A DNA stretch of 64,000 nucleotides from an uncultured bacterium (GCA_905339405.1 CAJPGC010000007.1:27739-91738); one strand, 5' to 3'; shown: positions 15,654 through 64,000, counted from the stretch's first letter. The notes: generated by a model from the letters alone, not told the origin. Translations and numbers: made by a program.

Positions 15654-15656
15654 TTC

Positions 15657-16124
15657 ATGAGGATAGAGTTCATAAACCCTTTTGTCGAGGCCGCCTTGAG
15701 CGTCCTCGACGCCGTACTCCAGGAGCCCTCTTCGAAGGGCGAGATGACGCTGGAGAGGGGGCTGGCGCAGCGGGAAAGCTTTTCAGTCAGCTTCGGCCTC
15801 ACAGGCGGCATCGAAGGCATGGTACTGTTCGACGCCAACGAGCGGACAGCGATGGACATAGCCGGAGCCATGAACGGGCGCAGGTTTGAGGAGATGGAGC
15901 CGCTGGTGCTGGACAGCATGGCAGAGCTGATGAACATGATAATAGGCAGCAGCGTCAGCTTGCTCAACGAAAGCGGCTTCAGGTTCGAGCTGACGCCGCC
16001 GTCGATACTGTGGGGAAGGGACATGAAGCTTTTCCCTATCAATCTCGAGACGCTTAAAGTCCCTCTTCACTCGCCGAAGGGCGTTTTGACCATCAGCATT
16101 TCAATGAAGCCGAGGGTAGGTTGA
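15657..16124 (+). CDS. cheX: CheX-family chemotaxis phosphatase
   Basis: CheX-like composition (FINPF..., MNMIIGSS) directly after cheY. Confidence 0.7.
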   Translation: MRIEFINPFVEAALSVLDAVLQEPSSKGEMTLERGLAQRESFSVSFGLTGGIEGMVLFDANERTAMDIAGAMNGRRFEEMEPLVLDSMAELMNMIIGSSVSLLNESGFRFELTPPSILWGRDMKLFPINLETLKVPLHSPKGVLTISISMKPRVG

Positions 16125-16174
16125 ATGCCGATGACGGCCCGGATAAAAGACGGTAAACGCGAGGGGCGTACCCT

Positions 16175-17372: not shown

Positions 17373-18239
17373 ATGGTCATCTCGTGCCCGGCGTGCTCTA
17401 AAAAATTCAACTTCAACGGCGAGGCGAAAAACCACGCACGGTTCAGGTGCACGGCCTGCGGGGCTGTTTTCAGCATGGGCGGGGAGCCCTCTGCAAAAAC
17501 AGCTGCGGGACAGAAGGCTTTCAAGGTCTTGGCCGCAACCGAAAACAACTCGATAGAGCGTGCAGTGAAAGCCGCCCTTGCAGACGGCAGGATAGAGCTT
17601 TCATTGGCGGCAGACGGCAACCAGGTTTTTGAAAAGATTTCCATCGATAAACCGCACCTGCTTATACTGGACGCCGCCATACAGGGAATGTTCAGCTTTA
17701 CGCTTTGCGAGAAGATTAAGAGCGACCAGTCGCTTCAGGACATAAAGATAATCCTGACGTCCGCGGCGTTTAATAAAAGCCGGTATAAGCGCAGGCCCTC
17801 GGAGCTGTTCGGGGCCGATTGCTATATCGAAGCCCATCAGCTCGAGGACGCCCTGGCAGGAAAAGCTGGCGCACTGCTCGGGGTCGAGCTTCGCGGGAGC
17901 GTGGCGGATGGCGTCGGGCCTGCGGGCAACGCGAGGGAGAACTCAGGCCCTGAAAATGGACTCGAGGAGAAGGACGCGAAAAAAACAGATGAAGACGGCA
18001 AGGCAAAACGGCTGGCGCGGGTCATAGCCGCCGACATCTTGTTGTATCACAGGAAAAAGCTCAGCCAGAAAGTTGAAAAACAGGACGCATCTGTCCTGTT
18101 CAAAGAAGAGATAGACGAAGCCGTCAAGTACTTCAATAAGAGGCTCCCCGGAGCAGATATCGCGTACATCCACGCGGCGATAGAAGAGTGTCTCGATTCG
18201 ATGAACAAGACCATGGGCACGGAGGCTGCGAATTGCTGA
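17373..18239 (+). CDS. Zinc-ribbon (MJ0042-type CxxC...CxxC) protein with receiver-like domain
   Basis: N-terminal CPACSKKF...CTACGAVF zinc ribbon; central REC-like fold (HLLILDAAIQGM ... IILTSAA). Confidence 0.6.
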   Translation: MVISCPACSKKFNFNGEAKNHARFRCTACGAVFSMGGEPSAKTAAGQKAFKVLAATENNSIERAVKAALADGRIELSLAADGNQVFEKISIDKPHLLILDAAIQGMFSFTLCEKIKSDQSLQDIKIILTSAAFNKSRYKRRPSELFGADCYIEAHQLEDALAGKAGALLGVELRGSVADGVGPAGNARENSGPENGLEEKDAKKTDEDGKAKRLARVIAADILLYHRKKLSQKVEKQDASVLFKEEIDEAVKYFNKRLPGADIAYIHAAIEECLDSMNKTMGTEAANC

Positions 18240-18312
18240 GCTCGACGAGAGTGGCGTTGGCCCGCATTTTTGCAGCGCAAGGCGTTGATATTCGCACCGA
18301 AAGGAACTTGAT

Positions 18313-19182
18313 ATGAGCCTTCCGGAAAGAAGACCAGAGAGTCAGGAAAGCCCGGTAGAGCGGGAAAGCCGTCAGGGCGCACCGCGTTCCACAAAGGGCG
18401 TCGAGATGGTGACGATGCTCAAGAAGGGCCTCGAGTACACACAGGACCTCCTCAAGGAGAACGAATGGCTGAGGCAGACCGCCATCAAGCTTCAGGAGCA
18501 GAACCGGCTTCTTCAGGCAAGGGTCAAGGACCCTTGCCCCGGCGCTGACTCCGCCGAGTTGATGGAGAGGCTCAAGTCCTCGCAGCAGGAGAAGGCCGGG
18601 CTCGAGGAGCGGACAAAAGAGCTGGAGAGGGAAAACCAGGAGTTCGCCAACCGCTATGTCGAGATTGAAGAGCAGAACCAGATGCTCACCAACCTGTATA
18701 CGGCCAGTTTTCAGCTTCATTCATCCCTCGACTACAACGAAGTGCTCAGAGGAGTCACCGAGATAATCATAAACCTCATAGGCGCGGAGAGGTTCGCGGT
18801 CATGCTGCTCGACGAGAAATCCCTTGTCCTCACGGCGGTAGCGGCCGAGGGGATGGAGATGGAGGAAGTGCTTCCTGTCAAGGTGGGTGAAGGCGCCGTA
18901 GGCGCGGCGGTCTCTTCCGGAGAGGTCTTTTACGGCAGCGGTGAAGCCTCCGGCGGGAGCCCTCTGGTCTGCCTGCCGCTCAAAATAGGGGAGAAGGTCA
19001 TAGGCGTCATCGTCATCTACGACCTCCTCAGGCAGAAAGAAAAGTTCACGGAAATCGATTACGAGCTCTTCTCGATGCTTGGAGACCATACCGCTACCGC
19101 TCTGTTCAGCGCGAAGCTTTACACCGAGTCGGAGAGAAGGCTGTCGACCATACAGGGGTTCATAGACCTTATTACCAAGTAG
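18313..19182 (+). CDS. Coiled-coil / GAF-domain protein
   Basis: Long heptad-rich coiled coil followed by a GAF-like region (FAVMLLDEKSLVL...GVIVIYD). Possible alternative start at MVTMLKKG. Confidence 0.6.
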   Translation: MSLPERRPESQESPVERESRQGAPRSTKGVEMVTMLKKGLEYTQDLLKENEWLRQTAIKLQEQNRLLQARVKDPCPGADSAELMERLKSSQQEKAGLEERTKELERENQEFANRYVEIEEQNQMLTNLYTASFQLHSSLDYNEVLRGVTEIIINLIGAERFAVMLLDEKSLVLTAVAAEGMEMEEVLPVKVGEGAVGAAVSSGEVFYGSGEASGGSPLVCLPLKIGEKVIGVIVIYDLLRQKEKFTEIDYELFSMLGDHTATALFSAKLYTESERRLSTIQGFIDLITK

Positions 19183-50752: not shown

Positions 50753-52354
50753 TTGGAAAGTAAGGAAAAGAAGAGTTTCGCTGATTTCGGGCTGTCCGGC
50801 GACATGCTCAAATCCATCCTCTCGATGGGTTTCGAAGAGCCCACTCCCATACAGGCCAGGACAATACCGGTGCTCCTCACCGGAAAGGACGTCATCGGCC
50901 AGGCGCAGACTGGCACCGGCAAGACGGCGGCCTTCGGCATACCAGTAATAGAGAAGGTCGACAGGCAGGTGAACGCGGTGCAGGCGATAGTGCTCGCCCC
51001 CACGAGGGAGCTTGCCATGCAGGCGGCCGAGGAGATGAACAAGCTAGGAAAGCACAAGAGGATACACGCCCTGCCTGTATACGGCGGCACGTCCATTGAA
51101 AGGCAGATAAAGGCGCTCGTCAAGGGCGTGCAGGTGGTGGTGGGCACCCCGGGCAGGGTCCTCGACCACATAGAGAGAAAGACGCTTTCGCTCAAGGAAG
51201 TAAAGATGGTTGTCCTCGACGAGGCCGACGAGATGCTGGACATGGGCTTCGTGGAAGACATTACGAAGATATTGAAGACCACGCCCGAGACGAGGCAGAC
51301 CCTTCTTTTTTCGGCGACCATGCCGGAAGAGATACTGAAGATATCCAAGCGCCACATGAAAAACCCCGAGCGCATACGCATAGCCACCGACACGCTCACT
51401 GCCCCGAAGATAAGCCAGATAGTCTACGAAGTGCGCAACGCCGACAAGCTCGACGCCCTGTGCCGCCTCATCGACTTCGGCTCCGAAGGCACTTACCTCA
51501 TATTCTGCCACACCAAGAGGGAAGTCGACGAGGTCTCGCAGCACCTGCGCCTGCGCGGGTATGAGGCCGACGCGATGCACGGCGACTACACGCAGGCCCA
51601 GAGGGAAGCGGTGCTCAAAAAGTTCCGCGACGGCAGGGTCGACGTCCTGGTCGCGACCGACGTCGCCGCAAGGGGCCTGGACATAAGCAGCATCTCCCAC
51701 GTCGTCAACTACTCGATACCCCAGAACCCGGAATCTTACGTGCACAGGATAGGCCGTACCGGAAGGGCTGGAAGGGAAGGCGTGGCCATAACGTTCGTCA
51801 CCCCGAGGGAAGACAGGCAGCTCCGCCTCATACAGTCGGTCGCAAAGGCCCAGATTAAAAGGGGCAAGCTCCCGAGCAGGGAAGAGGTCCTGGGAGCCAG
51901 GCTTACCGGCCTCGAGGAGAAGATGAACGAGTTCATCGACGACAAGCGCTTCGACAAGTTCATGACGCTCGCCGAGAGGGTCTCCGAGAAGATGGACCCG
52001 AAGGAAGCTCTGGCCGCTCTCCTGAAGTTCCAGCTCGAGGGCTTTGACAAGCCGGCCGAGCAGCAGGAGGAAGCCTCTCTCAACGATACCGGGGCCTCCC
52101 CCGGCATGGCCCGCCTCTTCCTTACGATAGGCAAGGAGCAGGGCGTGAGGGTAAACGACATAGTCGACGCGATATCGAGGAGGGCCGAGATCCCCAAGCA
52201 GTTCATCAAGGGCGTGGCCATATTCGAGACCTTCACCTTCGTCGAGGTCCCCAGGGATTCGGCTGAGAAGATAATAGAGATGGTGCACCGTTCCATCATC
52301 TCGGGCAGGAAGGTCGCCGTTGCCCCGGCGAAGCCGAAGGTGGCGAGAAGGTAA
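50753..52354 (+). CDS. deaD: DEAD-box ATP-dependent RNA helicase (DeaD/CsdA-like, with C-terminal DbpA-type RNA-binding domain)
   Basis: Q motif, AQTGTGKT, DEAD, SAT, HRIGRTGRAG motifs; C-terminal extension. Confidence 0.9.
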   Translation: MESKEKKSFADFGLSGDMLKSILSMGFEEPTPIQARTIPVLLTGKDVIGQAQTGTGKTAAFGIPVIEKVDRQVNAVQAIVLAPTRELAMQAAEEMNKLGKHKRIHALPVYGGTSIERQIKALVKGVQVVVGTPGRVLDHIERKTLSLKEVKMVVLDEADEMLDMGFVEDITKILKTTPETRQTLLFSATMPEEILKISKRHMKNPERIRIATDTLTAPKISQIVYEVRNADKLDALCRLIDFGSEGTYLIFCHTKREVDEVSQHLRLRGYEADAMHGDYTQAQREAVLKKFRDGRVDVLVATDVAARGLDISSISHVVNYSIPQNPESYVHRIGRTGRAGREGVAITFVTPREDRQLRLIQSVAKAQIKRGKLPSREEVLGARLTGLEEKMNEFIDDKRFDKFMTLAERVSEKMDPKEALAALLKFQLEGFDKPAEQQEEASLNDTGASPGMARLFLTIGKEQGVRVNDIVDAISRRAEIPKQFIKGVAIFETFTFVEVPRDSAEKIIEMVHRSIISGRKVAVAPAKPKVARR

Positions 52355-52364
52355 GCGGAAAAGA

Positions 52365-52397
52365 AATGTTCAAAGGCCCGGGTCTTTCTGACCCGGG
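52365..52397. terminator. Intrinsic terminator between convergent genes
   Basis: Perfect stem ggcccgggtc/gacccgggcc followed by a T7 run on the + strand. Confidence 0.65.
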
Positions 52398-52404
52398 CCT
52401 TTTT

Positions 52405-53949
52405 TTATCCCGCCTTTTTTCTTGAGACCCAGTTCTTAAGGAACCTCATCCCTTCCGAGAATACAGAGCCCATGTCAGGCGAGAATATCTCAAAGACGTT
52501 CTCCTCTATGACAGCTTTCTCGGGGTCGAGGAGCAGCTCGTCTATGGTCTTTAAAAAGTCGCTGCCCTCGAAGTAGGAGCTGAAGGAGTGTTTCTGGAGC
52601 TTGTAGAGCCTCTTCTCGGCGATGAAGTCGAGGTACTCGACGATCCCCCTTGTCGCCGCAACCTTCCTCTTTTCTATGTGCCTGTCCGGGCCGATATGCT
52701 CGAGGAGCAGCCCGAGGCGGAGCTTCCTTATCGACCTCATGAGCCTGAGGTCAATGAGTGATGCCTCCCAGGATATGTTTATCTCCGTGTCCAGGCCCAT
52801 GCTCCTGTTCGTGGTGTTCGCGGAGCCAATAGTTGCGAACCTGTCGTCCACCATGACGAGTTTAGAGTGTATGTATACAGGAACCTCTTCGCCTGCCTCG
52901 TCGAAGCTCGTCGAATAATAGACCCCGAACGAGTGGCCCTGTCTTTGCGCGGTCTGCCTCAGTATCGAAAGGATCCTTGCCTGAAGGAGGCCGACCGATA
53001 TCTCTTCCACGAGCGCGCTCGGCTTCTTCGGGAGGATGAGTACTATATCTAAGGGAGGGGCGGTCTCGTCCTCCATGCGGTCAATGAGCGCCCTGTAGAC
53101 GGCGTAAGAGCTGAAGTACTGGTTTTCGATGTAGACGAGTTCCCTGGCAGCGCGGATGGCGTCGACGTAGAGCGACCTTATCTCCTTTACCGGCCCCTTG
53201 ACCTGCACGAAGGTCTGCCCCTGCGTTCTGCTGAGGGCCGCCTTTCCGGCCTTGATGGGCGTGCCTATGCCTGCAGGCAGGTAGCGGCGTCTTCTGGGCG
53301 CGGGAAGGCTCAACTCGTTTCCGGTGCACAGTTTCCATCTTTCAGTGAAGACCTCCAGAAGCCTTCCGATGAGCTCCCCGGTGAAGTAGGCCTGTACGTC
53401 GTGGTACGGGCCGTAAGCGCCGCCGTCGGGGTTGACCCTGTCCGGGTTGACGGCCCTGTGGCAGCGGTCGTCCCACCTCCCGGCGCACAGGTCCATGCCG
53501 CCGAGGAAAGCGGCCGCCCCGTCGATGATGACGAACTTCTGGTGCTGGCTCGCGCCGATGGCGTGCTTGTCGTCGAACCTGAAAAGGAGCCGGTCGCTGG
53601 TGGACCAGTTGAAGACTATCTCCTGCATCCACTCGCGCTCGTGCATGAAGATGAGGCTGAAGTCCCAGGCGAGTATGTATATTCGAAGGGTGGGGTTTTC
53701 CCGGCAGAGCGAGTCGAGGAACCTCAAGAGGCGGACCTCGCCTGTCTCCCTTTGCGCTGACTTGCCGCGAAGGAGCGCGACCTCGCTGTCGAACTGCCAG
53801 CCGGATATCGCTATGTAGTCTCTGGCCTCTCTCGCGGCCATGTGGAAAGCCGTGTAGTATTCCTCGGCGTCCACGTAGACCCCTGACTGATCGACTCCGG
53901 CGACCTCAAAGCAGTTACGGCCCGTCTTCAATATCCGGCCACCATGCAT
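52405..53949 (-). CDS. Phospholipase D-family protein with two HKD motifs
   Basis: HQKFVIIDGAAAFLGGMD and HSKLVMVDDRFATIGSANTTNRS (HxKx4D twice). Start set at the ATG at 53949 with RBS ggagga; the listed ORF's extension to 54402 overlaps the upstream EEP gene. Confidence 0.8.
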   Translation of the reverse strand: MHGGRILKTGRNCFEVAGVDQSGVYVDAEEYYTAFHMAAREARDYIAISGWQFDSEVALLRGKSAQRETGEVRLLRFLDSLCRENPTLRIYILAWDFSLIFMHEREWMQEIVFNWSTSDRLLFRFDDKHAIGASQHQKFVIIDGAAAFLGGMDLCAGRWDDRCHRAVNPDRVNPDGGAYGPYHDVQAYFTGELIGRLLEVFTERWKLCTGNELSLPAPRRRRYLPAGIGTPIKAGKAALSRTQGQTFVQVKGPVKEIRSLYVDAIRAARELVYIENQYFSSYAVYRALIDRMEDETAPPLDIVLILPKKPSALVEEISVGLLQARILSILRQTAQRQGHSFGVYYSTSFDEAGEEVPVYIHSKLVMVDDRFATIGSANTTNRSMGLDTEINISWEASLIDLRLMRSIRKLRLGLLLEHIGPDRHIEKRKVAATRGIVEYLDFIAEKRLYKLQKHSFSSYFEGSDFLKTIDELLLDPEKAVIEENVFEIFSPDMGSVFSEGMRFLKNWVSRKKAG

Positions 53950-53969
53950 TGTAAGTCTCCTCAGAGGGC

Positions 53970-54719
53970 TCAGCGTATCTCGATTTCGGCTATAAGGGGG
54001 AGGTGGTCGGAAGCCAGGCACGTGAGCTTGCTCCTGGGGACCTTGGTGTCCATGACCTCGACCCCGGACCCGGTGAAGATGTGGTCTATCCTGGCCAGGG
54101 GGAAGCGGCTCGGGTAAGTGTTCATGGGCTTCTTCCCTTTTATCGAGAGCTGCGCGTCCTGCAGGAACTTCCTTATCCTGCGGTAGACGCTCGATATCGG
54201 GAGGGTGTTGAAGTCCCCGCAGACGACAAGCGGAGAGGCGCATGAAGAGTGCGCCGCCCATCCGGCCCCGAGAAGCGTCTCGGCCTGCAGGAGCCTTTCC
54301 CGGAGGTTGTGCCCGAAGTGCGTATTTATTATCTGGACCTCCCTGCCGCCTAGATCGATAGCGGCCCATATCGCTCCGCGCCTCTCGAGCGGCCTGAACC
54401 ACCAGGGAGAAGGGAGAGGTCCGGCCTGCACGAGCCGCAGTGGATAGCGGCTCAATATGGCGTTGCCGTACTCCCCTTCCTGCACCTCTATGGACGGGTG
54501 GAAATGGAAGTCCATGTTCAGGTGCCTGGCTATCTCGGCAGCCTGGTGCTCATGGTTCGTCCTGGCCAGCCCGGAGTCGAGCTCCTGTATGGCCACGATG
54601 TCCGGCTCGAAGGAGGCTATTACGTCCGCGACCCTGTAGGTCGATATCCTGCCGTCCGAGCCAGTGCAGCTGTGGACGTTATAGGTCATGACGCGGAGAG
54701 TCTTTTCCGAGTACGGCAT
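53970..54719 (-). CDS. Endonuclease/exonuclease/phosphatase (EEP) family hydrolase
   Basis: EEP motifs (VMTYNVH, IQELD, GDFNT, SDHLPL). Confidence 0.8.
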   Translation of the reverse strand: MPYSEKTLRVMTYNVHSCTGSDGRISTYRVADVIASFEPDIVAIQELDSGLARTNHEHQAAEIARHLNMDFHFHPSIEVQEGEYGNAILSRYPLRLVQAGPLPSPWWFRPLERRGAIWAAIDLGGREVQIINTHFGHNLRERLLQAETLLGAGWAAHSSCASPLVVCGDFNTLPISSVYRRIRKFLQDAQLSIKGKKPMNTYPSRFPLARIDHIFTGSGVEVMDTKVPRSKLTCLASDHLPLIAEIEIR

Positions 54720-54945
54720 CTCATCTCTACTTTAAGAGTATAGCAGGCCCAATGGCCAGCTGTGCGTAATGAAGCGCAACGGAGCCGCCGCGCAGAGCGC
54801 TTTTAAGCGCGGCCTGGCATCTGGCAGAATCTCGTTTGGATTAGGTGCGAGAGTGGAAAGAAGGCCGGAGTTTGCAGCGTGAGACATCTGCGTGACTTGC
54901 AAAATTATAACATGGAAAACCGGCTTCAGGAAAGTATTTTCGTCG

Positions 54946-55398
54946 TCATCTGTACTCATCTTTGGGCACTATGGTGATGCCTCCGTCCTTTTCAAGGATG
55001 GCGTATTTTATCTGCTCAAGACGCTCGAGCCCCTGGAGCTTTCTGGCTGCCTCCAGGATGTCGGTCTCGTCTATCCTTGCTTTCCTGAGCGTCTCTGTGA
55101 GGGGCGCGCCGTCTTTCATTATTATGACGGGCGTGCCTTCGATCCATTTGTCGAGCCGCCCGGAGCGCTGTTTTATTATCGAAAGACCGATGTCTATGAG
55201 TATCAGCGTGATTATGAGGATAAAGGCGTTGGTGAATGAGAAGTCGTTCCCGATGAGCGCCTGCTGCGTTGACTCGCCGATTATGAGGAGGAGCACGAGG
55301 TCGAAGGTCGTTACTTCGGCGAGGGTGCGCTTCCCGGCGACCCTTATGACGATGAGGAGGAAAAAGTACATCGCCGCGCCCCTCAATACAGGTTCCAT
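54946..55398 (-). CDS. DUF421 (YetF-like) membrane protein
   Basis: N-terminal TM helices plus the YetF-type soluble domain pattern. Confidence 0.65.
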
Positions 55399-55407
55399 GC
55401 CGCGCTC

Positions 55408-55908
55408 CTATGGAAAGACGAACTGGCTGAATTCAACCGTTGATTTTCCGCTCCCTATACTGCCTGAAAGCCTCCCGACCCTCAGAGGCTGGAAGTAAAG
55501 GCTTATCTCTAGCTCCCTTGCGCTCCCGTCGAGGCGGAAGCCGAAATATATTTTCCCTTCTGCGGCAATGACCTCTTCAGGCCGTGGAAGCATCTGTTTC
55601 ATGTAGACGCTTTCGAGATAGTCCCTGCTTATCCAGACTGAAAGCCTGCCGCCTTCAGAGGTCTTTACTTTTATGGTCATCTCCGAGTCTTTCTGATGAA
55701 AAACCGTCCCGTTGTATTCCGTTTTGACGGCTCTGTCCGGGCTTTCTGATTCGTCAGTGCCTGAAAGGCCCGGCCCGGCAAGACCGGCCAGGGCAAGCAG
55801 GACGGCAAGGGACATCAGGGCCCATGACACGCGCTGCGCCTTGTGGAACCTCCTCTGGTACGCGGCGTCTTCCTCTATTTCGATGTCACCCACCCTTTTG
55901 ATATCCAT
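55408..55908 (-). CDS. Hypothetical membrane-anchored protein
   Basis: 166-aa ORF with one TM helix, apparently co-transcribed with the DUF421 gene. Confidence 0.45.
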   Translation of the reverse strand: MDIKRVGDIEIEEDAAYQRRFHKAQRVSWALMSLAVLLALAGLAGPGLSGTDESESPDRAVKTEYNGTVFHQKDSEMTIKVKTSEGGRLSVWISRDYLESVYMKQMLPRPEEVIAAEGKIYFGFRLDGSARELEISLYFQPLRVGRLSGSIGSGKSTVEFSQFVFP

Positions 55909-56212
55909 GAATGATTATAGACCTGTAAAGACGTTTAAGCTGTGGGCCGGTTTCCTTGACAACAGACAATCCTGATATAAGTTTAGATAAGCCTTGTTCA
56001 TCAACTCAGAAGCTCCTGTGGTGAGCGCTCGGGGTTACTGACTCTTTGGTTCGCGCGCAAAGGCGGCCTCCATTTTCCCCGCTGTCAGTCTGAAAAGTTA
56101 GCAGAGAAGCCGTGTGTCCCGTGGATGCGCCGCGACGGCCCATCTTTTGAATTGGCGCGCCCTGGCTTAGCCCGGGACTTCCACTGGCGAGCTTGCGTGC
56201 TTTTACAACTCC

Positions 56213-57340
56213 TTGAGGAGGCAGACCGTGAAAAGTATCTTGATTACCGGAGGAGCGGGATTCATAGGCTCGCATCTGTCTGATGAGCTCCTTGCCAACG
56301 GGTACGAGGTCAGGGCGCTGGACAACCTCTCAGAGCAGGTCCACGGCAGCGGCAGCACGAGGCCCGAGTACCTCGACGACAGGGTCGAACTCGTAGTAGG
56401 CGACGTAAGGGACCCTGAAGCTGTCCGTGAGGCGCTCGACGGGGTCGACGCGGTGTTCCACTTCGCCGCAGCAGTCGGCGTAGGGCAGTCGATGTACGAG
56501 ATTGCCGAGTACGTTGACGTGAACAGCCGGGGCACGGCCGTGCTCCTCGAGGAACTTATAAAACAGCCTGTCAAAAAGCTCGTCGTGGCCTCGAGCATGA
56601 GCATCTACGGGGAAGGCCTTTACAGGGCCTCCGACGGCTCGATGATATCGAACGCCTGCAGGGAGCTCGAAGCCATAAAGGCCGGCAAATGGGAGGTAAT
56701 GGACGGGTGCGGGCAAGCAGCCGTTCCTTTGCCGACTGGCGAGACAAAGGAGCCCTCCCTTTCATCTGTCTACGCCCTCACGAAGTACGACCAGGAGAAG
56801 ATGTGCCTCATGACTGGCAGGGCTTACAACATCCCGACCGTCGCAATGAGGTTCTTCAACGTCTACGGCCCGAGGCAGGCCTCCTCGAACCCGTATACCG
56901 GCGTGCTGGCCATATTCTCAGCGAGGTTCATGAACATGAGGCCGCCGCTCATCTACGAGGACGGTCTGCAGAAAAGGGACTTCGTGAGCGTTCACGACAT
57001 CGCCAGGGCCTGCAGGCTCGCGCTTGAGAGCGGCTCCGCAGATTATCTTTCCTTCAACGTAGGAAGCGGCCGGAGCTATTCGATACTGGAGATTGCCGGG
57101 CGCCTGTCAAAGGTCTTCGACGTCGACATAAGCCCCGAGGTCGTCGGAAAGTACAGGGTTGGGGACATAAGGCACTGTTTCGCCGACATCGGCCTGGCCG
57201 AAAGGCTCCTCGGCTACACTCCTTCCGTTTCGCTTGACGAGGGTCTCGAGGAACTGCGGCAATGGCTCGAAGGAAGGGTCGCTCACGACAGGGTAGCCGA
57301 GGCGAGCGCGGAACTTGCTGGACGCGGCCTCACAATCTAA
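56213..57340 (+). CDS. NAD-dependent epimerase/dehydratase (UDP-sugar 4-epimerase-like SDR)
   Basis: TGGAGFIGSHL Rossmann motif and YxxxK region. Possible start at GTG 56228. Confidence 0.85.
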   Translation: MRRQTVKSILITGGAGFIGSHLSDELLANGYEVRALDNLSEQVHGSGSTRPEYLDDRVELVVGDVRDPEAVREALDGVDAVFHFAAAVGVGQSMYEIAEYVDVNSRGTAVLLEELIKQPVKKLVVASSMSIYGEGLYRASDGSMISNACRELEAIKAGKWEVMDGCGQAAVPLPTGETKEPSLSSVYALTKYDQEKMCLMTGRAYNIPTVAMRFFNVYGPRQASSNPYTGVLAIFSARFMNMRPPLIYEDGLQKRDFVSVHDIARACRLALESGSADYLSFNVGSGRSYSILEIAGRLSKVFDVDISPEVVGKYRVGDIRHCFADIGLAERLLGYTPSVSLDEGLEELRQWLEGRVAHDRVAEASAELAGRGLTI

Positions 57341-57354
57341 GGCGGGATGAATCG

Positions 57355-58638
57355 ATGAGATACGCCCTTGTGAACCCTAATTGGAATTTTGACGGCAGCG
57401 CGTACTTCGGCTGCCGCGAATGTCATTTTCCGCTCGAGCTCGGTTACTCGAAGGCTCTTCTTGGTGAGGCCGGTTTCGATTCGATCATCATCGACGCTCA
57501 CATGGAGGGACTGTCACTGGCGGAGGTAAGGCTGAGGGTTGAGGCGTTCTCGCCTGATTTCATCGTTGTCACTACCGCGCCGAGCTATCTTTTCTGGCGC
57601 TGTCCGCCTCCGGAGCTCAAGATTCCGATGGAGTTGATGGAAGCCCTTGAAGGGATAAAGGGGCAGAGGATAGTCATGGGGCCGCACGGCTCGGTGACTC
57701 CGGCCGCCGTGATGAAAAAACTCGGCGCTGACATCGTCATAATTGGAGAGGGCGAAAGCGTCCTTCCCGATATCGGCAGGAACGCCGGAGACTTCGGCAA
57801 GGTGCCTTCGATATGCGTCAACCGCAACGGCGTGGCGGAAATACAGGGAAGGCCTGCCGCTTCAGATATGGCGTCGCTTCCGGCCCTCAAGTGGGGGGCT
57901 GAATACATTAGCAGGCATTCGCACCACCACCACAGGTTCGCAACCCGGCCGGAAGGGCTCGGGGCCGAGGTGGAAGCTTCGCGCGGCTGCCCCTATTCGT
58001 GCACCTTCTGCGCGAAAGACTCCTTCAGGACGAATTACAGAAAGCGCCCTCTTGAGGCTGTGCTCGAAGAGCTCGACTGTCTCTGCGCGAACGGGGTTGG
58101 GTACGTCTACTTCATAGACGAGATATTCATGCCGGACAGGGCCCTTCTTGACGCGCTGGCCTCAAGGAAGCTCTCTTTCGGCATACAGACGAGGATAGAC
58201 CTGTGGAAGCCCGGGATGCTCTCTCTCCTCGGAGAAGCCGGGTGCGTTTCCATTGAGGCCGGGGTCGAGAGCATATCAGAGCGCGGCAGGAGCCTTCTCG
58301 GTAAAAGGTGCGCCGCTTCTACCGAAGAGCTCGTGGCGCTCCTTTCGGCGGCCAGGAAATCCGTGCCATTCGTTCAAGCGACCCTGCTCGATTCCCGCGT
58401 CGACGACCCATTGGCAGTCGAAGCATGGAGGAGCATGCTGCTGGACCACGGCGTGTGGGCGAACAGCCCGGTGCCCATGTTCCCATATCCCGGCTCCGGT
58501 GAGTATACGAAAAGATGGGGCAGGCCAGACGATTACGCCTGGGAGCGCGCTCACGAGCATTACCTCGAGGTCAACGGCTCCTTCAGCGACATCCAGAGCT
58601 CTAACCCTGTGCCCTTGCGGGAGCTCGAAAAAAGATGA
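57355..58638 (+). CDS. B12-binding radical SAM protein (class B)
   Basis: N-terminal cobalamin-binding-like domain and CPYSCTFC (Cx3Cx2C) motif. ATG at 57355; the listed ORF start 57262 overlaps the epimerase gene. Confidence 0.75.
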   Translation: MRYALVNPNWNFDGSAYFGCRECHFPLELGYSKALLGEAGFDSIIIDAHMEGLSLAEVRLRVEAFSPDFIVVTTAPSYLFWRCPPPELKIPMELMEALEGIKGQRIVMGPHGSVTPAAVMKKLGADIVIIGEGESVLPDIGRNAGDFGKVPSICVNRNGVAEIQGRPAASDMASLPALKWGAEYISRHSHHHHRFATRPEGLGAEVEASRGCPYSCTFCAKDSFRTNYRKRPLEAVLEELDCLCANGVGYVYFIDEIFMPDRALLDALASRKLSFGIQTRIDLWKPGMLSLLGEAGCVSIEAGVESISERGRSLLGKRCAASTEELVALLSAARKSVPFVQATLLDSRVDDPLAVEAWRSMLLDHGVWANSPVPMFPYPGSGEYTKRWGRPDDYAWERAHEHYLEVNGSFSDIQSSNPVPLRELEKR

Positions 58639-59759
58639 GCGCGCCAGGAAGGCTTAAAAAGGTATTGATGACGGCCGACACGGTCGGCGGTGTCTGGACT
58701 TATTCAATCGAGCTGGCCGCCGCACTGGAAAAAAAGGGCGTGCAGGTCTTTCTTGCCACCATGGGCGCGCCGTTGACCCACGGCCAGATCGCTGAAGTTA
58801 AAATGGTGCCTGGCCTCGAGGTATTCGAGAGCGGCTTCAGGCTCGAATGGATGGAAGACCCCTGGGAGAACGTAAGGCTTGCGGGAGAGTGGCTTCTCAG
58901 GCTCGAAAACTATATCAAGCCGGACGTCATACATTTGAACGGATATTCTCACGGCAGTGTGCCTTTCAGCGCGCCTGCCGTGGCAGCCGGCCATTCTTGC
59001 GTACTTTCGTGGTGGGAAGCCGTAAAGGGCGGAGATGCTCCCAAGGACTGGGACAGGTACCGCCGGGAAGTAGGCAGCGGGCTTGCGGGGGTGAAAGCTG
59101 TTTGCGCGCCGACGCGGGCCATGCTCGCCTCCCTCCACAGGTTTTACCGGTTTTCGGCCCCCTCGCGCGTAATACCTAACGGAAGGGAAGAAGAGCTTTT
59201 CAGGCCCGCCGAAAAACAGGACTTCATCTTCGCCGCCGGAAGGCTCTGGGACGAGGCTAAAAACATACGGACTCTCCAGGCCGCAGCGTTTTCGCTCGAA
59301 TGGCCCGTTTACGCCGCAGGCGAATGCTCGCATCCTTCAGGGACTCAGCTCCCTGATGGAGCGATAAGGGCCCTGGGCGTGCTTTCGCAGAAGGAGCTTG
59401 CCTCATGGCTCTCGGCCGCCTCTGTTTTCGCGGCACCGGCCCTCTACGAGCCGTTCGGCCTCACGGTTTTGGAAGCCGGTCTTTCGGGAGCTGCGCTCGT
59501 GCTCGGCGACATACCTTCCCTTAAGGAGAACTGGGAGGACGCGGCCCTTTTCGTAGAACCGAGGGATACGAAATCGCTGAAAGATATCCTGTCTCTCCTC
59601 ATGAGGGACGCCGGGTTGAGGTCTGCTTACGGCATAAAGGCAAGGGCGAGGGCACTCGAGTTTACGGCCTCGAGGATGGCCGAAGGCTATATCGATTTTT
59701 ACGAAGAAGCGCTTTCCGGTAATACAGGTTTCGAGGAGGCCCAAAGATGCGTTTCGTGA
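58635..59759 (+). CDS. Glycosyltransferase family 1 (GT4-type)
   Basis: C-terminal EPFGLTVLEAGLSGAALV GT1 motif; ATGA overlap with the upstream gene. Confidence 0.85.
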   Translation: MSAPGRLKKVLMTADTVGGVWTYSIELAAALEKKGVQVFLATMGAPLTHGQIAEVKMVPGLEVFESGFRLEWMEDPWENVRLAGEWLLRLENYIKPDVIHLNGYSHGSVPFSAPAVAAGHSCVLSWWEAVKGGDAPKDWDRYRREVGSGLAGVKAVCAPTRAMLASLHRFYRFSAPSRVIPNGREEELFRPAEKQDFIFAAGRLWDEAKNIRTLQAAAFSLEWPVYAAGECSHPSGTQLPDGAIRALGVLSQKELASWLSAASVFAAPALYEPFGLTVLEAGLSGAALVLGDIPSLKENWEDAALFVEPRDTKSLKDILSLLMRDAGLRSAYGIKARARALEFTASRMAEGYIDFYEEALSGNTGFEEAQRCVS

Positions 59760-60847
59760 TGTTCTATCATTCGCTCATATCCGACTGGAACCACGGAAAC
59801 GCTCACTTCCTGAGGGGGATAGCCACAGAGCTCCTCTTCAGGGGGCACGATGTCGTGGTCTATGAACCGGAGGACTCGTGGAGCTACGCTAACCTCACGG
59901 CCGTCTGCGGGCAGGCTTCATGTATTTTCGAATCGAAGTACCCGTGGCTCAAAAGCCGCAGATACAGGCTCGAGCAGATAGACCTCGAGGCAGCTGTTTC
60001 GGAAGCGGACGTCGTAATAGTCCACGAATGGAACGACCATGAACTCGTAAGGAGGCTCGGGGACATGAGGGCGCGCTCTAGCTCCTTCAGCCTTTTTTTC
60101 CATGACACGCACCACAGGTCGGTTACTGAGCCGGAGGGCATGGCCGCGTACGACCTCTTTAACTATGACGGCGTTCTCGCCTTCGGAGACGTAGTGCGCG
60201 ACCTGTACCTGCGGCGCGGCTGGGCTGAGAGGGCATGGACCTGGCATGAGGCAGCTGACCTGCGCACGTTCAGGCCGCTCGAAGCTGAAAAGAAGGGAGA
60301 CCTAGTCTGGGTTGGGAACTGGGGCGACGGCGAAAGGGCGGCGGAGCTCTCGGAGTTTCTTCTCGAGCCGGTAAAATCATTAGGCCTCAAGGCGCGCATC
60401 CACGGCGTCAGATACCCCGAGGAAGCTTTGGCCAGCCTGGAGGACGCCGGGGTCGAGTACGCGGGCTGGACTCCCAACTTCGACGTGCCGGAGATTTTCG
60501 CATCGTTCAATTTTACCGTCCACGTGCCGAGAAGGCCCTACGCCGAATCGCTGCCCGGCATACCTACCATAAGGATTTTCGAGGCGCTAGCGTGCGGCAT
60601 CCCGCTTGTAAGCGCGCCCTGGGACGACTCTGAAGGGCTTTTCACTCCGGGGAAAGACTTCCTCGTGGCGAAGAACGGAGTGATGATGGAACGCCACCTC
60701 AAAGACCTTGCGAACGACAAAGCCATGAGATGGGAGATTTCCCGGAACGGCCTTGCGACGGTCCGCGCGAAGCACAGCTGCTCACACAGGGCTGACGAGC
60801 TCCTTGCGATATGCGGTGAACTCAAGGGAGGGATGGCAGCCATATGA
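59747..60847 (+). CDS. CgeB-like glycosyltransferase paralogue 1
   Basis: N-terminal SDWNHGNAHFLRG...GHDVVVYEP and C-terminal RIFEALACGIP motifs shared with the downstream paralogues. Confidence 0.65.
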   Translation: MRFVMFYHSLISDWNHGNAHFLRGIATELLFRGHDVVVYEPEDSWSYANLTAVCGQASCIFESKYPWLKSRRYRLEQIDLEAAVSEADVVIVHEWNDHELVRRLGDMRARSSSFSLFFHDTHHRSVTEPEGMAAYDLFNYDGVLAFGDVVRDLYLRRGWAERAWTWHEAADLRTFRPLEAEKKGDLVWVGNWGDGERAAELSEFLLEPVKSLGLKARIHGVRYPEEALASLEDAGVEYAGWTPNFDVPEIFASFNFTVHVPRRPYAESLPGIPTIRIFEALACGIPLVSAPWDDSEGLFTPGKDFLVAKNGVMMERHLKDLANDKAMRWEISRNGLATVRAKHSCSHRADELLAICGELKGGMAAI

Positions 60848-61926
60848 AACAGGGGCTTCAAATCGCTTTTTTCGGGTCGAGCCTCGTTTCAGCGTACTGG
60901 AACGGCGCGGCGACATATTACAGGGGAATAATAAAGGGCCTTAACGGCCTCGGCCATTCGATCAAGTTTTACGAGCCTGACGCCTACGACAGGCAGCGGC
61001 ACAGGGACATCGCCGACCCGGACTGGGCAAAGGTCGAGGTCTACCCGGCAACTCTCGACGGTGTTTCGAAAGCACTTGAGAAGGCATCTCGCGCGGACCT
61101 CATCGTAAAGGCGAGCGGAGTCGGCGTCTTCGACGAATTCCTCGAAAAGGCGGTGCTCGACATAAGGCGGCCCGGCGCGCTGGCAGCTTTCTGGGACGTC
61201 GACGCCCCGGCAACTCTCGAGCGCGTAAAGGAAAACCCGGCTGACCCGTTCAGGGCCCTCGCCGGAAAATACGACCTCGTGTTCACTTACGGCGGCGGCG
61301 AGCCTGTCGTGGCCGGTTACGGCGGGCTTGGAGCAGCGGCCTGTTGGCCGATATACAACGCGCTCGACCCGGCGACGCACTTTCCGGTCGCGCCTGTGGA
61401 GAGGTTCCGGGCGGACCTGGGTTTTCTCGGTAACAGAATGCCTGACCGCGAATCAAGGGTCTGGGAGTTCTTCTTCAACGCGGCAGCCGGCCTTCCGGAC
61501 AAGAAGTTTCTCCTCGGGGGGAACGGCTGGGACAAGGTGGCCATGCCGAACGTCAACTGGGTCGGCCACGTCTATACGCGCGACCATAACGCGTTCAACT
61601 CTACGGCCCTGGCGGTATTGAACGTCAACAGGGCTTCGATGGCAAGGTACGGCTTCTCGCCCCCGACGCGCATCTTCGAGGCTGCCGGGGCAGGCGCCTG
61701 CATCATAACCGACGAGTGGGAAGGCATAGGGATGTTTCTCGAGCCTGGCTCGGAAGTCCTTGTGGCTGAAAGCGGGGCCGAAGTGGGCGCGCTCGTAAAG
61801 GGGCTTACAAAGGAGAGGGCCGGTAAAATCGGCAGAAGGGCTTTCAAGAGGGTCATGGCCGAGCACACGTACGGTCATCGGGCAAGAGAGCTCGAGCGCA
61901 TCTTGAACGGACTGGCCGGCAGATAG
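60844..61926 (+). CDS. CgeB-like glycosyltransferase paralogue 2
   Basis: SAYWNGAATYYRG...GHSIKFYEP; C-terminal RIFEAAGAGAC. Confidence 0.65.
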   Translation: MKQGLQIAFFGSSLVSAYWNGAATYYRGIIKGLNGLGHSIKFYEPDAYDRQRHRDIADPDWAKVEVYPATLDGVSKALEKASRADLIVKASGVGVFDEFLEKAVLDIRRPGALAAFWDVDAPATLERVKENPADPFRALAGKYDLVFTYGGGEPVVAGYGGLGAAACWPIYNALDPATHFPVAPVERFRADLGFLGNRMPDRESRVWEFFFNAAAGLPDKKFLLGGNGWDKVAMPNVNWVGHVYTRDHNAFNSTALAVLNVNRASMARYGFSPPTRIFEAAGAGACIITDEWEGIGMFLEPGSEVLVAESGAEVGALVKGLTKERAGKIGRRAFKRVMAEHTYGHRARELERILNGLAGR

Positions 61927-61947
61927 GTCGAGAAAGAAAAGGAGTTT

Positions 61948-63042
61948 TTGATGAGCCTCCATCCGCTCAGGATAGTCATGCTCGGGCTTTCAATCACCTC
62001 TTCCTGGGGCAACGGCCACGCGAGCACCTACAGAAGTCTCGTCAAAGAGCTCACAGAGCGCGGCCATGACGTGCTCTTTCTGGAGCGCGACGTGCCCTGG
62101 TATAGGGAGAACAGGGACATGCCTTCGCCGCCATGGGGGCGCACGAGACTTTATTGCAGCCTCGAAGAGCTCAAAGACAGCTTCGAGCCGGACGTGAGGC
62201 AAGCCGACTTCGTCATGGTCGGCTCGTACGTGCAGGAAGGACGCGCGGTTGGCGAATGGGTAAACTCCGTGGCAAGGGGCGCGACTGCTTTTTACGATAT
62301 CGACACGCCGGTCACTCTCGCGAAGCTTGAAAAGGGCTGCTGCGAATATCTCTCGGCGCAGCTGGTCTCGAGGTACGACGTCTATCTTTCGTTCACTGGA
62401 GGTCCGATACTTGAAAAAATAGAGTCCAGGTACGGCTCGCCAATGGCGAGGCCCCTTTACTGCTCCGTCGACCCGGCGGTCTACAAGCCTCTTGACCTGC
62501 CGAAAAAATGGGACATGGGCTACCTTGGCACGTACAGCGCCGACAGGCAGCCCGTTCTCGACAGGCTTATGCTCGAGCCAGCAAGGCGCTCTCAAGGCAG
62601 GTTCGTCGTTGCGGGCCCTCTTTATCCTGAAACGGCAAAATGGCCAGCGAACACCGATAGGATAGAGCACCTGCCGCCGGGCCTGCACAGCGCGTTTTAC
62701 GGGTCGATGAAGTACACAGTAAACATAACGAGGGCGGACATGGTCAGGGCCGGGTATTCTCCGAGCGTCCGGCTTTTCGAGGCGGCCGCCTGCGCGGCAC
62801 CCATCATCTCCGACTACTGGGAAGGCCTTGAGACCCTGTTCAGGCCCGGAGAGGAGATACTCGTCTCCCGCTCCGCCGAAGATACTCTCAGGTATCTCCG
62901 TGAGCTTACGGTGGAGCAGAGGTCAAGGATAGGCGAGAGGGCCAGAGCCAGGGTGCTCTCCAGGCATACAGCCTCACACAGAGTCGATGAGCTGGAATCG
63001 TACATGGCAGACGTGCTCAAAAAACAGGAGGTGCTCGAATGA
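61948..63042 (+). CDS. CgeB-like glycosyltransferase paralogue 3
   Basis: SSWGNGHASTYRS...GHDVLFLERD; C-terminal RLFEAAACAAP. Confidence 0.65.
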   Translation: MMSLHPLRIVMLGLSITSSWGNGHASTYRSLVKELTERGHDVLFLERDVPWYRENRDMPSPPWGRTRLYCSLEELKDSFEPDVRQADFVMVGSYVQEGRAVGEWVNSVARGATAFYDIDTPVTLAKLEKGCCEYLSAQLVSRYDVYLSFTGGPILEKIESRYGSPMARPLYCSVDPAVYKPLDLPKKWDMGYLGTYSADRQPVLDRLMLEPARRSQGRFVVAGPLYPETAKWPANTDRIEHLPPGLHSAFYGSMKYTVNITRADMVRAGYSPSVRLFEAAACAAPIISDYWEGLETLFRPGEEILVSRSAEDTLRYLRELTVEQRSRIGERARARVLSRHTASHRVDELESYMADVLKKQEVLE

Positions 63043-63716
63043 CACACCATGAGCCTCGGCGAAGGTCATCTGGAGAAGCGGTAAACGTCGGCGGCGCAGA
63101 ACGCCTCATCTCCGCGCTTCTCGGCGGCTTCCTGGCACTTAAGGCTGCCAGAAAGGGCGGGCTGCTGAGGACTCTTGCCAGCGGGTATTTGGTGTACAGG
63201 GGCGCAACCGGCCACTGCGGGCTTTACAAGGCAGCCGGTATAAATACGGCTGAGGGCCGCGGGATAGTGCTCGACGAGACTGTGACCGTGAACAGGCCTG
63301 TCTCCGAGGTCTACGCCTTCTGGCGCAACCTCGAAAACCTGCCCGAGTTCATGGAGCACCTCAAGGAAGTGAACGTCATCGACAGGAAACGCTCCCACTG
63401 GGTCGCCGTTGTCCCGGGCGGAGCCCGCATAGAGTGGGACGCCGAGATAGTCGGAGAGAGCGAGAACGAATACATCGCCTGGCAGTCGCTGCCGTACTCA
63501 GACATTGAAACGCGCGGTTCAGTTGAATTCAGCGAAGCGCCCGGACACAGGGGCACCGTCATCAGGGTCCATATGCTCTACAACCTGCCGGGGGCGGGGA
63601 CGGCCGCAGTGGCGAGGCTTCTTGAGCATGTAACCTTCAGGCAGCTCCGCGGAGAGCTCCTGAGGTTCAAGGAGCTGATGGACGGCAAGGGGCCGGACAG
63701 GGCTATCGGAGAATAA
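63039..63716 (+). CDS. SRPBCC (cyclase/dehydrase-like) protein with N-terminal TM segment
   Basis: Polyketide_cyc2-like pattern (VTVNRPVSEVYAFWRNLENLPEFMEHL ... W.S). Confidence 0.6.
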   Translation: MTHHEPRRRSSGEAVNVGGAERLISALLGGFLALKAARKGGLLRTLASGYLVYRGATGHCGLYKAAGINTAEGRGIVLDETVTVNRPVSEVYAFWRNLENLPEFMEHLKEVNVIDRKRSHWVAVVPGGARIEWDAEIVGESENEYIAWQSLPYSDIETRGSVEFSEAPGHRGTVIRVHMLYNLPGAGTAAVARLLEHVTFRQLRGELLRFKELMDGKGPDRAIGE

Positions 63717-63783
63717 ATCCGCTTTGCTGGCCAAAAGGCATAAGGCTTTGGGCGCCTTATGCCTTTTTAATACCGGAGGTGAG

Positions 63784-64000
63784 ATGAAGCTCGCCGTTTT
63801 CGGCCTTACCATGAGCTCTTCCTGGGGCAACGGGCACGCTACCATCTGGAGGGGTCTTTGCCGCGGCCTAGCGAAAAGAGGGCACAGGGTAGTCTTCTTC
63901 GAGAGGGACGTCCCGTACTACGCCTCGCACAGGGATATGCTCTCTCCGGAGGGAGCCGAGCTTGTCCTCTACGGGTCGTGGGAAGATATAAAAAGGCGCG
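63784..64000 (+). CDS. CgeB-like glycosyltransferase paralogue 4 (3'-truncated by the window edge)
   Basis: SSSWGNGHATIWRG...GHRVVFFERD, same signature as paralogues 1-3. Confidence 0.6.
   Translation, partial: MKLAVFGLTMSSSWGNGHATIWRGLCRGLAKRGHRVVFFERDVPYYASHRDMLSPEGAELVLYGSWEDIKRR

Follow-up and report, generated by a model that had tools for sequence, protein, structure and literature searches.

A B12-domain radical SAM protein and four PF13524 paralogues in a widespread 'rhizo-twelve' cassette of an uncultured bacterium

The island and the cassette to which it belongs

A stretch of 64,000 nucleotides from an uncultured bacterium (GCA_905339405.1 CAJPGC010000007.1:27739-91738), here called the window, ends in a series of genes that occupies 56228-64000 on the plus strand. 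The initial annotation described it as a glycan-biosynthesis island in which an epimerase, a B12-binding radical S-adenosylmethionine (SAM) enzyme and a glycosyltransferase are followed by four CgeB-like paralogues; the whole series is indeed present, open reading frame (ORF) listing and hidden Markov model (HMM) scans both recover that succession, and the general reading as a cluster for glycan or sugar biosynthesis holds good. The island represents a widespread and highly syntenic cassette that has already been catalogued in TIGRFAMs/NCBIfam, and it is an ordinary member of it, with no local innovation. The marker families of the cassette are TIGR04295, a B12-domain radical SAM protein of the 'rhizo-twelve system', and TIGR04290, a methyltransferase. 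The radical SAM protein of the window matches TIGR04295 end to end (residues 1-422 of 422; 645.4 bits against a cut-off of 400), and its homologues carry the JGI label 'B12-binding domain/radical SAM domain protein of rhizo-twelve system'. The second marker lies approximately 1.6 kb past the window end, as was established from a 139-kb contig of a metagenome-assembled genome (MAG; GCA_030834745.1, here L001) found by exact-protein look-up, which is 98.9% identical to positions 55295-64000 of the window and carries the complete cluster; its methyltransferase gene (10302-11039) scores 363.8 bits against a TIGR04290 cut-off of 300. The genes in the interval originally given for the island, 56213-64000, are real, but they form only the 5' half of an operon-like cluster of about 16 genes and 16 kb that runs on for some 9 kb.

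The first gene, SDR1 (56228-57340), encodes an NAD-dependent epimerase/dehydratase (PF01370, E = 7e-52) of the short-chain dehydrogenase/reductase (SDR) type. It starts at a GTG preceded by the ribosome-binding site GAGGAGG, with an alternative TTG start at 56213; its best NCBIfam match is GalE (153 bits, under the cut-off of that family) and its positional orthologue on the Bradyrhizobium plasmid p195_2 shares 60% identity with it. The gene for the radical SAM protein follows (57355-58638); a mechanical ORF list puts its start at an ATG at 57262, but homologues begin at 57355, and 57262-57354 is an over-extension. Next come a glycosyltransferase of family 4 (GT4a, 58635-59759; PF13439, PF13579, PF13692 and PF00534), with weak matches of its C-terminal part to the MSMEG_0565 and MshA families, and the PF13524 genes P1 (59747-60847; E = 4.5e-35), P2 (60844-61926; E = 2.5e-35) and P3 (61948-63042, alternative start ATG 61951; E = 1.6e-36). 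The membrane-anchored SRPBCC protein reported between the third and fourth paralogues was found there (63039-63716), and consists of a YgaP-like membrane hairpin (PF11127, 35 bits) and a Polyketide_cyc-type SRPBCC domain (PF03364, 55 bits). P4 (63784-64000) is cut by the window end after 72 codons, and these match the beginning of the L001 gene (8490-9581) with 100% identity, which encodes 363 residues and matches PF13524 with 122 bits (E = 2e-35). Beyond P4, L001 carries genes for a sugar-1-phosphate nucleotidylyltransferase (NTP-transferase), the TIGR04290 methyltransferase, a PslG/GH39-like hydrolase and a PIG-L deacetylase, and further on a second GT4 enzyme (GT4b), a FemAB-like protein (Acetyltransf_6), a protein of 571 residues and a PHP phosphoesterase. 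All genes of the island in the window lie on the plus strand, and at most junctions neighbouring genes share 4-13 bases, in keeping with an operon.

The cassette has a very wide distribution. More than 7,700 homologues of the radical SAM protein were found at E < 1e-30, typically with 60% identity across Delta- and Alphaproteobacteria, Nitrospirales, Acidobacteriota and others, and a scan in which each GTDB species was represented by one genome gave at least 571 pattern-confirmed relatives. Synteny was studied in the best 80 of these at least 571 loci (53-65% identical), with all ORFs classified by phmmer against the cluster proteins. The hosts of the best 80 include Bryobacteraceae, Acidobacteriaceae, Sorangium, Chondromyces and other Polyangia, Nitrospirota, Mesorhizobium, Bradyrhizobium, Methylobacterium, Azospirillum, Skermanella, Acetobacteraceae, Thiohalomonas and one cyanobacterium. 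The order SDR-(SDR2)-radical SAM-GT4-P1-P2-P3 is almost invariant in these loci and is shared by Acidobacteriota, Myxococcota, Nitrospirota, Alpha- and Gammaproteobacteria and Cyanobacteria, and the synteny in related genomes that the initial annotation had suggested looking for was found in more than 60 of the best 80 loci, which share a neighbourhood of SDR, radical SAM, GT4 and three PF13524 genes, with P4 beside a nucleotidyltransferase gene. The same neighbourhood occurs on annotated plasmids, namely AZO_p5 of Azospirillum lipoferum and p195_2 of Bradyrhizobium sp. 195. With thousands of protein homologues, 55-70% identical, in at least eight phyla, the cassette is among the more widespread orphan biosynthetic gene sets, and its hosts take in agriculturally important rhizobia and Azospirillum.

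A core module and a frequent second module can be recognised. The core consists of an SDR, an optional second SDR (SDR2), one enzyme in a variable slot, GT4, P1, P2 and P3; in fully flanked loci P1 was found in 52 of 54, P2 in 51, P3 in 48 and GT4a in 47. The second module consists of P4 (23 of the 54), the nucleotidylyltransferase, the methyltransferase (27) and the PslG-like glycoside hydrolase (29). Common additions elsewhere are UDP-xylose synthase (UXS; 22/54), inositol-3-phosphate synthase (ino1; 17/54 within 10 kb) together with a histidine phosphatase and, in Bradyrhizobium, a phosphopentomutase. The window version has both markers above their cut-offs and the gene order of Azospirillum, Bradyrhizobium and Mesorhizobium; it differs from those cassettes in being without SDR2, ino1, histidine phosphatase and UXS, and in adding the SRPBCC, PIG-L, GT4b, FemAB-like acyltransferase (Acetyltransf_6), 571-residue and PHP-domain proteins. 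No tblastn match to ino1 or the histidine phosphatase was obtained in the 64-kb window, and L001 has neither gene; these are genes of the rhizobial version and are not universal in the cassette. The SRPBCC gene, which was present in one of the 54 fully flanked genome loci and in a handful of metagenome loci, is a sporadic accessory outside the conserved core. One unusual SDR2 was seen in Mojavia pulchra (L088, 2574-4646), where the protein has 690 residues, about twice the normal length, the additional half being without a Pfam match. Regulators of the Crp/Fnr family lie directly 5' of Bradyrhizobium cassettes (L007, 1-5537; L174, 1-734) and respiratory oxidase genes are near in L006 and L007, neighbours which may point to oxygen- or redox-linked regulation of the cassette.

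Four PF13524 orthogroups and the radical SAM slot

The predicted full-length paralogy of the four PF13524 genes, and the expected HMM matches, were both recovered. The paralogues align over their whole length with 25-41% identity (tblastn E-values from 1e-19 to 1e-84), a degree of similarity which, judged from the alignments, lies far beyond chance, and P1-P3 score 121-126 bits against PF13524, for which the cut-off is 25. Where the initial annotation went astray was in regarding them as a local tandem quadruplication. The window copies are generally 22-32% identical to one another (P1 to P2-P4, 22-27%; P3 to P4, 41%), compared with 51%, 58% and 56% for P1, P2 and P3 against the genes at the same positions on the Bradyrhizobium plasmid, and among 219 PF13524 proteins from 82 loci the mean identity was 55-62% inside positional groups and 24-43% between them. 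Since identity is higher to positional orthologues than to neighbours, the duplication is ancient and no feature of this genome; on the evidence of these comparisons P1-P4 are four ancient orthogroups that have been inherited as a block, the quadruplication being older than the spread of the cassette across phyla. Homologues of P3 are 65-70% identical in at least six phyla, including Cyanobacteria, Armatimonadota, Verrucomicrobiota, Chloroflexota and Abditibacteriota, which is unusually tight conservation for glycosyltransferases.

A shared N-terminal motif had been described in essentially the right form, but it is more exactly S-x4-G-x-A-x3-R...G-H-x-[VI]-x-[FV]-x-E, the tryptophan being off by one position in P2. 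The R-x-F-E-A motif is likewise present, although approximately 85 residues before the C-terminus rather than at the end, and in the fourth copy, of which 72 residues are visible in the window, it could be confirmed only on L001. Across all four orthogroups 24 alignment columns are at least 93% invariant, and in P3 numbering this set includes S18, G23, A25, R29, E46, D117, D175, R200, R262, G269, P272, R275, F277, E278, H340 and R345. From this pattern all four proteins look catalytically competent, and none appears to be a degenerate pseudo-enzyme.

The AlphaFold2 model of P3 (pLDDT 94.5) has a GT-B fold with two Rossmann domains, a fold that P1, P2 and P4 presumably share. In Foldseek comparisons it matched GT4 enzymes of the GT-B type with TM-scores of 0.64-0.76 (E = 5e-14), MshA and BshA reaching 0.71-0.76; the top matches in the PDB were MshA, BshA, PglA, the mannosyltransferase of methylmannose polysaccharide (MMP) synthesis, sucrose-phosphate synthase and tetrahydrobiopterin glucosyltransferase, and the best of them are retaining GT4 enzymes that act on small acceptors. 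The 'GT1' label used at the outset reflects the 'group 1' of Pfam and corresponds to a CAZy GT4-like family. By sequence, PDB searches with P3, singly or as a profile, gave only marginal matches to BshA, and when the P3 family and the neighbouring GT4 were compared profile to profile the probability was 1%, too low for residues to be mapped. E278 of P3 is invariant and aligns with the second glutamate of the EX7E motif, the hallmark of CAZy GT4 retaining glycosyltransferases. In place of the motif P1-P4 carry the signature R-x6-G-x2-P-x2-R-x-F-E-A, in which two invariant arginines close to the donor site are distinctive, and as far as their sequences allow a placement the family is GT4-like yet outside the EX7E hallmark. 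The likeness to CgeB and YkvP of B. subtilis, founders of PF13524, is confined to the Pfam domain (E of about 1e-35); the cassette hosts differ in not being spore formers, and P1-P4 differ in forming orthogroups of their own with the S-x4-G-x-A-x3-R signature. The labels 'spore maturation protein CgeB' and 'Mg-protoporphyrin cyclase' that are found on cassette genes are misleading. Two database proteins, P0134 (625 residues) and P0150 (541 residues), read as the C-terminal part of P2 joined in frame to a full P3; they may hint, in the Rosetta-stone manner, at a P2-P3 complex, or else be products of a frameshift or of wrong gene calling on short contigs.

The radical SAM protein has the B12-binding domain (PF02310, 37.9 bits against a cut-off of 32.1) and the radical SAM domain (PF04055, 47 bits) that had been anticipated, so that the B12-binding domain and the CxxxCxxC core of class B radical SAM methyltransferases are both present. 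The cysteines of this core (C213, C217 and C220) are invariant, as are C21, C84 and C298. In the AlphaFold2 model (pLDDT 86) the two-domain fold is nearest to TsrM, AprD4, MgmA, OxsB and CysS, and the best sequence match in the PDB, at about 18% identity, is AprD4, a non-methylating diol-dehydratase that acts on an aminoglycoside. Non-methylases of the AprD4, OxsB and BchE types are equally close relatives.

The content of the slot between the SDR genes and GT4 proved to be variable. In Armatimonadota, Abditibacteriaceae and Verrucomicrobiales it is occupied by a zinc-dependent alcohol dehydrogenase (Zn-ADH) of the medium-chain dehydrogenase/reductase (MDR) type, often followed by a protein of the GFO/IDH/MocA family. 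In 31 P3-anchored cassettes, drawn from a metagenome scan and look-ups, the slot held the radical SAM protein in 12 and Zn-ADH in 17 (nine of these with GFO/IDH/MocA), neither in two and both in none; apparent co-occurrences of the two were discarded as matches of 40-50 bits to unrelated MDR proteins. P3 of the ADH-type cassettes is 66-68% identical to P3 of the window, as close as that of the radical SAM type, and on a rough neighbour-joining tree of P2 the state of the slot switches at least about 11 times. In NCBIfam the slot ADH is best matched by tdh/IolM (scyllo-inosose 3-dehydrogenase) and the GFO protein by IolG (inositol 2-dehydrogenase), all of these matches being under their cut-offs. 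Whichever enzyme fills the slot, GT4a comes after it in every related locus, and it is likely to be the initiating transferase. In L109 (5537-7784) and L101 neither enzyme is encoded between SDR2 and GT4, and judging by these two loci the slot enzyme seems to be dispensable or encoded elsewhere.

These observations bear on the suggestion that the radical SAM enzyme C-methylates a sugar or lipid moiety. That proposal is weakened by the context, given that Zn-ADH fills the slot in 17 of the 31 cassettes, a dedicated SAM-dependent methyltransferase (TIGR04290) is already present in the cassette and AprD4 is an equally close fold. The alternation with Zn-ADH and the separate methyltransferase speak more for an oxidation, epimerisation or dehydration step than for C-methylation, and from gene context an oxidoreductase, an epimerase or a dehydratase with a sugar or cyclitol substrate is a likelier identity for the protein than a C-methylase. 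In aminoglycoside pathways the radical SAM enzyme BtrN and the Zn-dependent dehydrogenase of the NeoA type form an alternating pair, and the alternation of a radical SAM protein with a Zn-dependent MDR dehydrogenase in otherwise orthologous cassettes resembles it. There is a further likeness to aminoglycoside biosynthesis in that AprD4, which has a B12-like domain, heads the PDB matches by sequence and is among the best by fold. The differences are that identity is about 18%, that cobalamin use by the cassette protein is predicted from its domain and that the cassette is without an aminotransferase or a 2-deoxy-scyllo-inosose synthase.

Possible products of the cassette

No transmembrane segment is predicted in the cassette enzymes of the loci examined, and no protein rich in such segments was found in the cassette loci. 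A priming phosphoglycosyltransferase, flippase, ABC exporter, polymerase or ligase was found neither among the 16 genes of L001 nor in the Pfam-annotated loci L088, L090, L091, L092 and L174, in which respect the cassette differs from surface-polysaccharide loci of the Wzx/Wzy, ABC or synthase type with their genes for priming, export and polymerisation or ligation. Surface-polysaccharide loci are normally hypervariable, whereas the gene set of the cassette is nearly invariant across its hosts. The lack of export and polymerisation genes, the soluble enzymes and this near-invariance together argue for a defined product in the cytoplasm or at the inner leaflet rather than for an exopolysaccharide, O-antigen or spore coat. 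The cassette is most likely a cytoplasmic assembly line for an oligosaccharide or cyclitol-glycoside, and we consider it on balance probable that this orphan gene set builds a small decorated (pseudo)oligosaccharide by means of soluble enzymes, with exchangeable tailoring by the radical SAM protein.

The pathway that we infer would begin with the SDRs, UXS and nucleotidyltransferase, soluble enzymes that would furnish modified nucleotide sugars as donors. GT4a would glycosylate a small cytoplasmic acceptor, which in lineages with ino1 is probably inositol or inositol phosphate, as it is with MshA. P1-P3, and then P4, would each add one more residue in a fixed order, a stepwise addition of several residues that had been proposed from the outset and is kept here as the most economical reading of the four paralogues. 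The methyltransferase and PslG-like hydrolase would trim or cap the product and, in the window organism, PIG-L, GT4b and Acetyltransf_6 would together attach a glucosamine and re-acylate it, by de-N-acetylation and N-acylation. The finished (pseudo)oligosaccharide would remain cytoplasmic or located at the membrane's inner face. There is a resemblance to the early steps of mycothiol and bacillithiol biosynthesis, in which a GT4 enzyme (MshA or BshA), a PIG-L deacetylase (MshB or BshB) and an N-acyl or acetyl transferase act: the P3 model matches MshA and BshA best, the island of the window organism has a PIG-L, GT4 and GNAT-like trio, and ino1 and the phosphatase of the sister cassettes would supply an acceptor of the MshA type. 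The cassette differs in being without a cysteine ligase, in having four additional GT-B enzymes and a radical SAM protein, in the incomplete EX7E motif of P1-P4 and in NCBIfam scores for thiol-pathway families that are far under their cut-offs.

The favoured scheme of a soluble (pseudo)oligosaccharide pathway has to be set against a number of adverse observations. The first glutamate position of EX7E is I, F, Y or W in all 219 sequences, the transferase activity of P1-P4 is predicted from fold alone, and we know of no member of PF13524 that has been characterised biochemically. With no ino1 in the window or on L001, inositol may not be the acceptor in the window organism. A literature search found no report of a product or phenotype of the cassette, nor of the TIGR04295 and TIGR04290 families, nor biochemical data on PF13524 proteins. 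The neighbour-joining tree of P2 and the ORF-based classification of loci are both rough. Replacement of the radical SAM protein by Zn-ADH in position is no proof of an equal job, the two types of cassette could make different products, and two of the 31 have neither enzyme. Finally, a lipid-binding-fold SRPBCC protein with a transmembrane anchor lies inside the window operon, and the SDR also matches, weakly, 3Beta_HSD (81 bits), HpnA (72 bits), OleD and SdmB.

Those last two observations are also arguments for a different product, a glycolipid headgroup, formed if the cassette puts a short methylated glycan on a membrane lipid such as a hopanoid, carotenoid or glycerolipid. The radical SAM protein weakly matches the lipid B12-radical SAM family TIGR04072 and HpnR, GT4 enzymes often act at membranes without transmembrane segments, and among the hosts Bradyrhizobium, Methylobacterium, Acetobacteraceae, Acidobacteriota and cyanobacteria are groups which we take to be hopanoid producers. 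However, the SRPBCC gene is found in only one of the 54 fully flanked loci, the scores for lipid families are far under their cut-offs and weaker than the matches to sugar-nucleotide enzymes, no lipid-biosynthesis gene is conserved nearby, and ino1, UXS, nucleotidyltransferase and glycoside hydrolase genes, which are often linked, speak for water-soluble sugar chemistry, so that we regard a glycolipid as unlikely. A surface glycoconjugate of the spore coat or exopolysaccharide type, made by a locally quadruplicated CgeB-like transferase with C-methylation of a sugar or lipid by the radical SAM enzyme, was what the initial annotation had in mind, and would fit the adjacency and common direction of P1-P4, the naming of the family after the B. 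subtilis spore-maturation protein CgeB and the fold likeness of the radical SAM protein to the cobalamin-dependent methylases TsrM, TokK, CysS and MgmA. It is very unlikely in view of the four cross-phylum orthogroups, which leave no local duplication, the missing flippase, polymerase, ABC exporter and priming enzyme in every version of the cassette inspected, the enzymes without transmembrane segments, and the hosts, which belong mostly to non-sporulating Gram-negative lineages.

P1-P3, with or without P4, might instead form one hetero-oligomeric synthase for the polymerisation of a methylated polysaccharide in the cytoplasm, after the fashion of the mycobacterial MMP and methylglucose lipopolysaccharide (MGLP) systems, rather than act as enzymes adding one residue each. 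The fixed gene order, overlapping start and stop codons and high conservation, unusual for glycosyltransferases, would agree with such a complex, as would the two proteins that read as P2-P3 fusions and the MMP mannosyltransferase among the top fold matches of P3. The pairing of a methyltransferase with a PslG-like hydrolase also parallels MeT and MmpH of the MMP system. Both fusions come from short or partial contigs and are possibly frameshift artefacts, and minimal cassettes occur without the methyltransferase and hydrolase; we consider a synthase distinctly unlikely. The least credible proposal is that the cassette is the O-antigen operon for bradyrhizose, an inositol-fused C10 sugar of photosynthetic Bradyrhizobium, or a relative of it. 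Strains ORS278, STM3809 and STM3843 and B. aeschynomenes do carry the cassette, there with ino1 and a radical SAM protein capable of C-C chemistry, and an uncharacterised 11-gene sugar-modification operon is required for the O-antigen (PMC4743980). The cassette is found as well in many non-photosynthetic Bradyrhizobium and in other phyla, has 15 genes compared with 11, is flanked by Crp and methyl-accepting chemotaxis protein genes and not by lipopolysaccharide genes, and has SDRs annotated as CDP-tyvelose 2-epimerase as opposed to the dTDP-glucose 4,6-dehydratase (gdh) of that operon (PMC4743980). With host spread, gene number, flanks and annotations all mismatched, this identity was rejected.

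Returning to the (pseudo)oligosaccharide pathway, its most specific form would be a widespread cytoplasmic pseudo-oligosaccharide based on a cyclitol and made by four sequential GT-B enzymes, with the radical SAM protein as a one-step substitute for Zn-ADH plus GFO, and this we hold to be rather doubtful. If it were true, the product might be, for example, a stress-protective solute or a cofactor-like glycoside of soil and desert bacteria, and one radical step would oxidise or epimerise a sugar or inositol just as Zn-ADH and GFO/IDH/MocA do together in other lineages. The interest of the island lies in the cassette itself, that is in its conserved orphan product, in four paralogues of an unexplored GT-B family that are inherited together and in the natural exchange of a radical SAM protein for a dehydrogenase. 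Experimental handles are provided by a pathway that is soluble throughout, by a radical SAM protein naturally interchangeable with NAD-dependent dehydrogenases and by PF13524 paralogues that occur as fixed orthogroups with an intact shared active site.

Local features and neighbouring genes

At 63733-63771 the plus strand holds a perfect 14-bp hairpin with a U-run after it (-30.7 kcal/mol, z = -3.0), which was also returned by the terminator scan and looks like a terminator or attenuator. Its position between the SRPBCC gene and P4 coincides with the boundary of the two cassette modules seen elsewhere, and the island may be divided by it into two transcription units corresponding to these modules. 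No riboswitch or other RNA element was matched in an Rfam search of 55300-64000 at E-values up to 1, and a promoter scan 5' of SDR1 gave nothing above the shuffled background. The GC content of the island (0.59-0.60, compared with 0.53-0.60 elsewhere in the window) shows no anomaly that would hint at horizontal transfer.

Two proteins of the L001 contig have few recognisable features. The 571-residue protein (14805-16520) has no Pfam or NCBIfam match and recurs beside ino1 in Mesorhizobium loci; it holds a stretch, LIVDEGPGLSGTS, like that of a phosphoribosyltransferase, and its sole PDB match, in the C-terminal part, is choline-kinase-like and non-significant (E = 0.87). Directly 3' of the island (17512-18422 onward) a protein of 1,684 residues, with faint matches to CarboxypepD_reg, SdrD_B and fn3-like repeats, is perhaps a large surface protein.

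Upstream of the island the mechanical ORF list gives the PLD gene (52405-54402) a product of 665 residues, which is over-extended upstream and overlaps the Exo_endo_phos gene. A related MAG (L093, 5047-12587) has the same upstream genes as window positions 50753-56000 (DEAD/DbpA helicase, PLD and Exo_endo_phos), followed by one P3-like PF13524 gene (65% identical) with PHP and PIG-L genes and then by thrS-infC-rpmI-rplT-pheST. This arrangement suggests that the large island was expanded or inserted at a site shared with L093, and that a trio of PF13524, PHP and PIG-L genes can stand alone.

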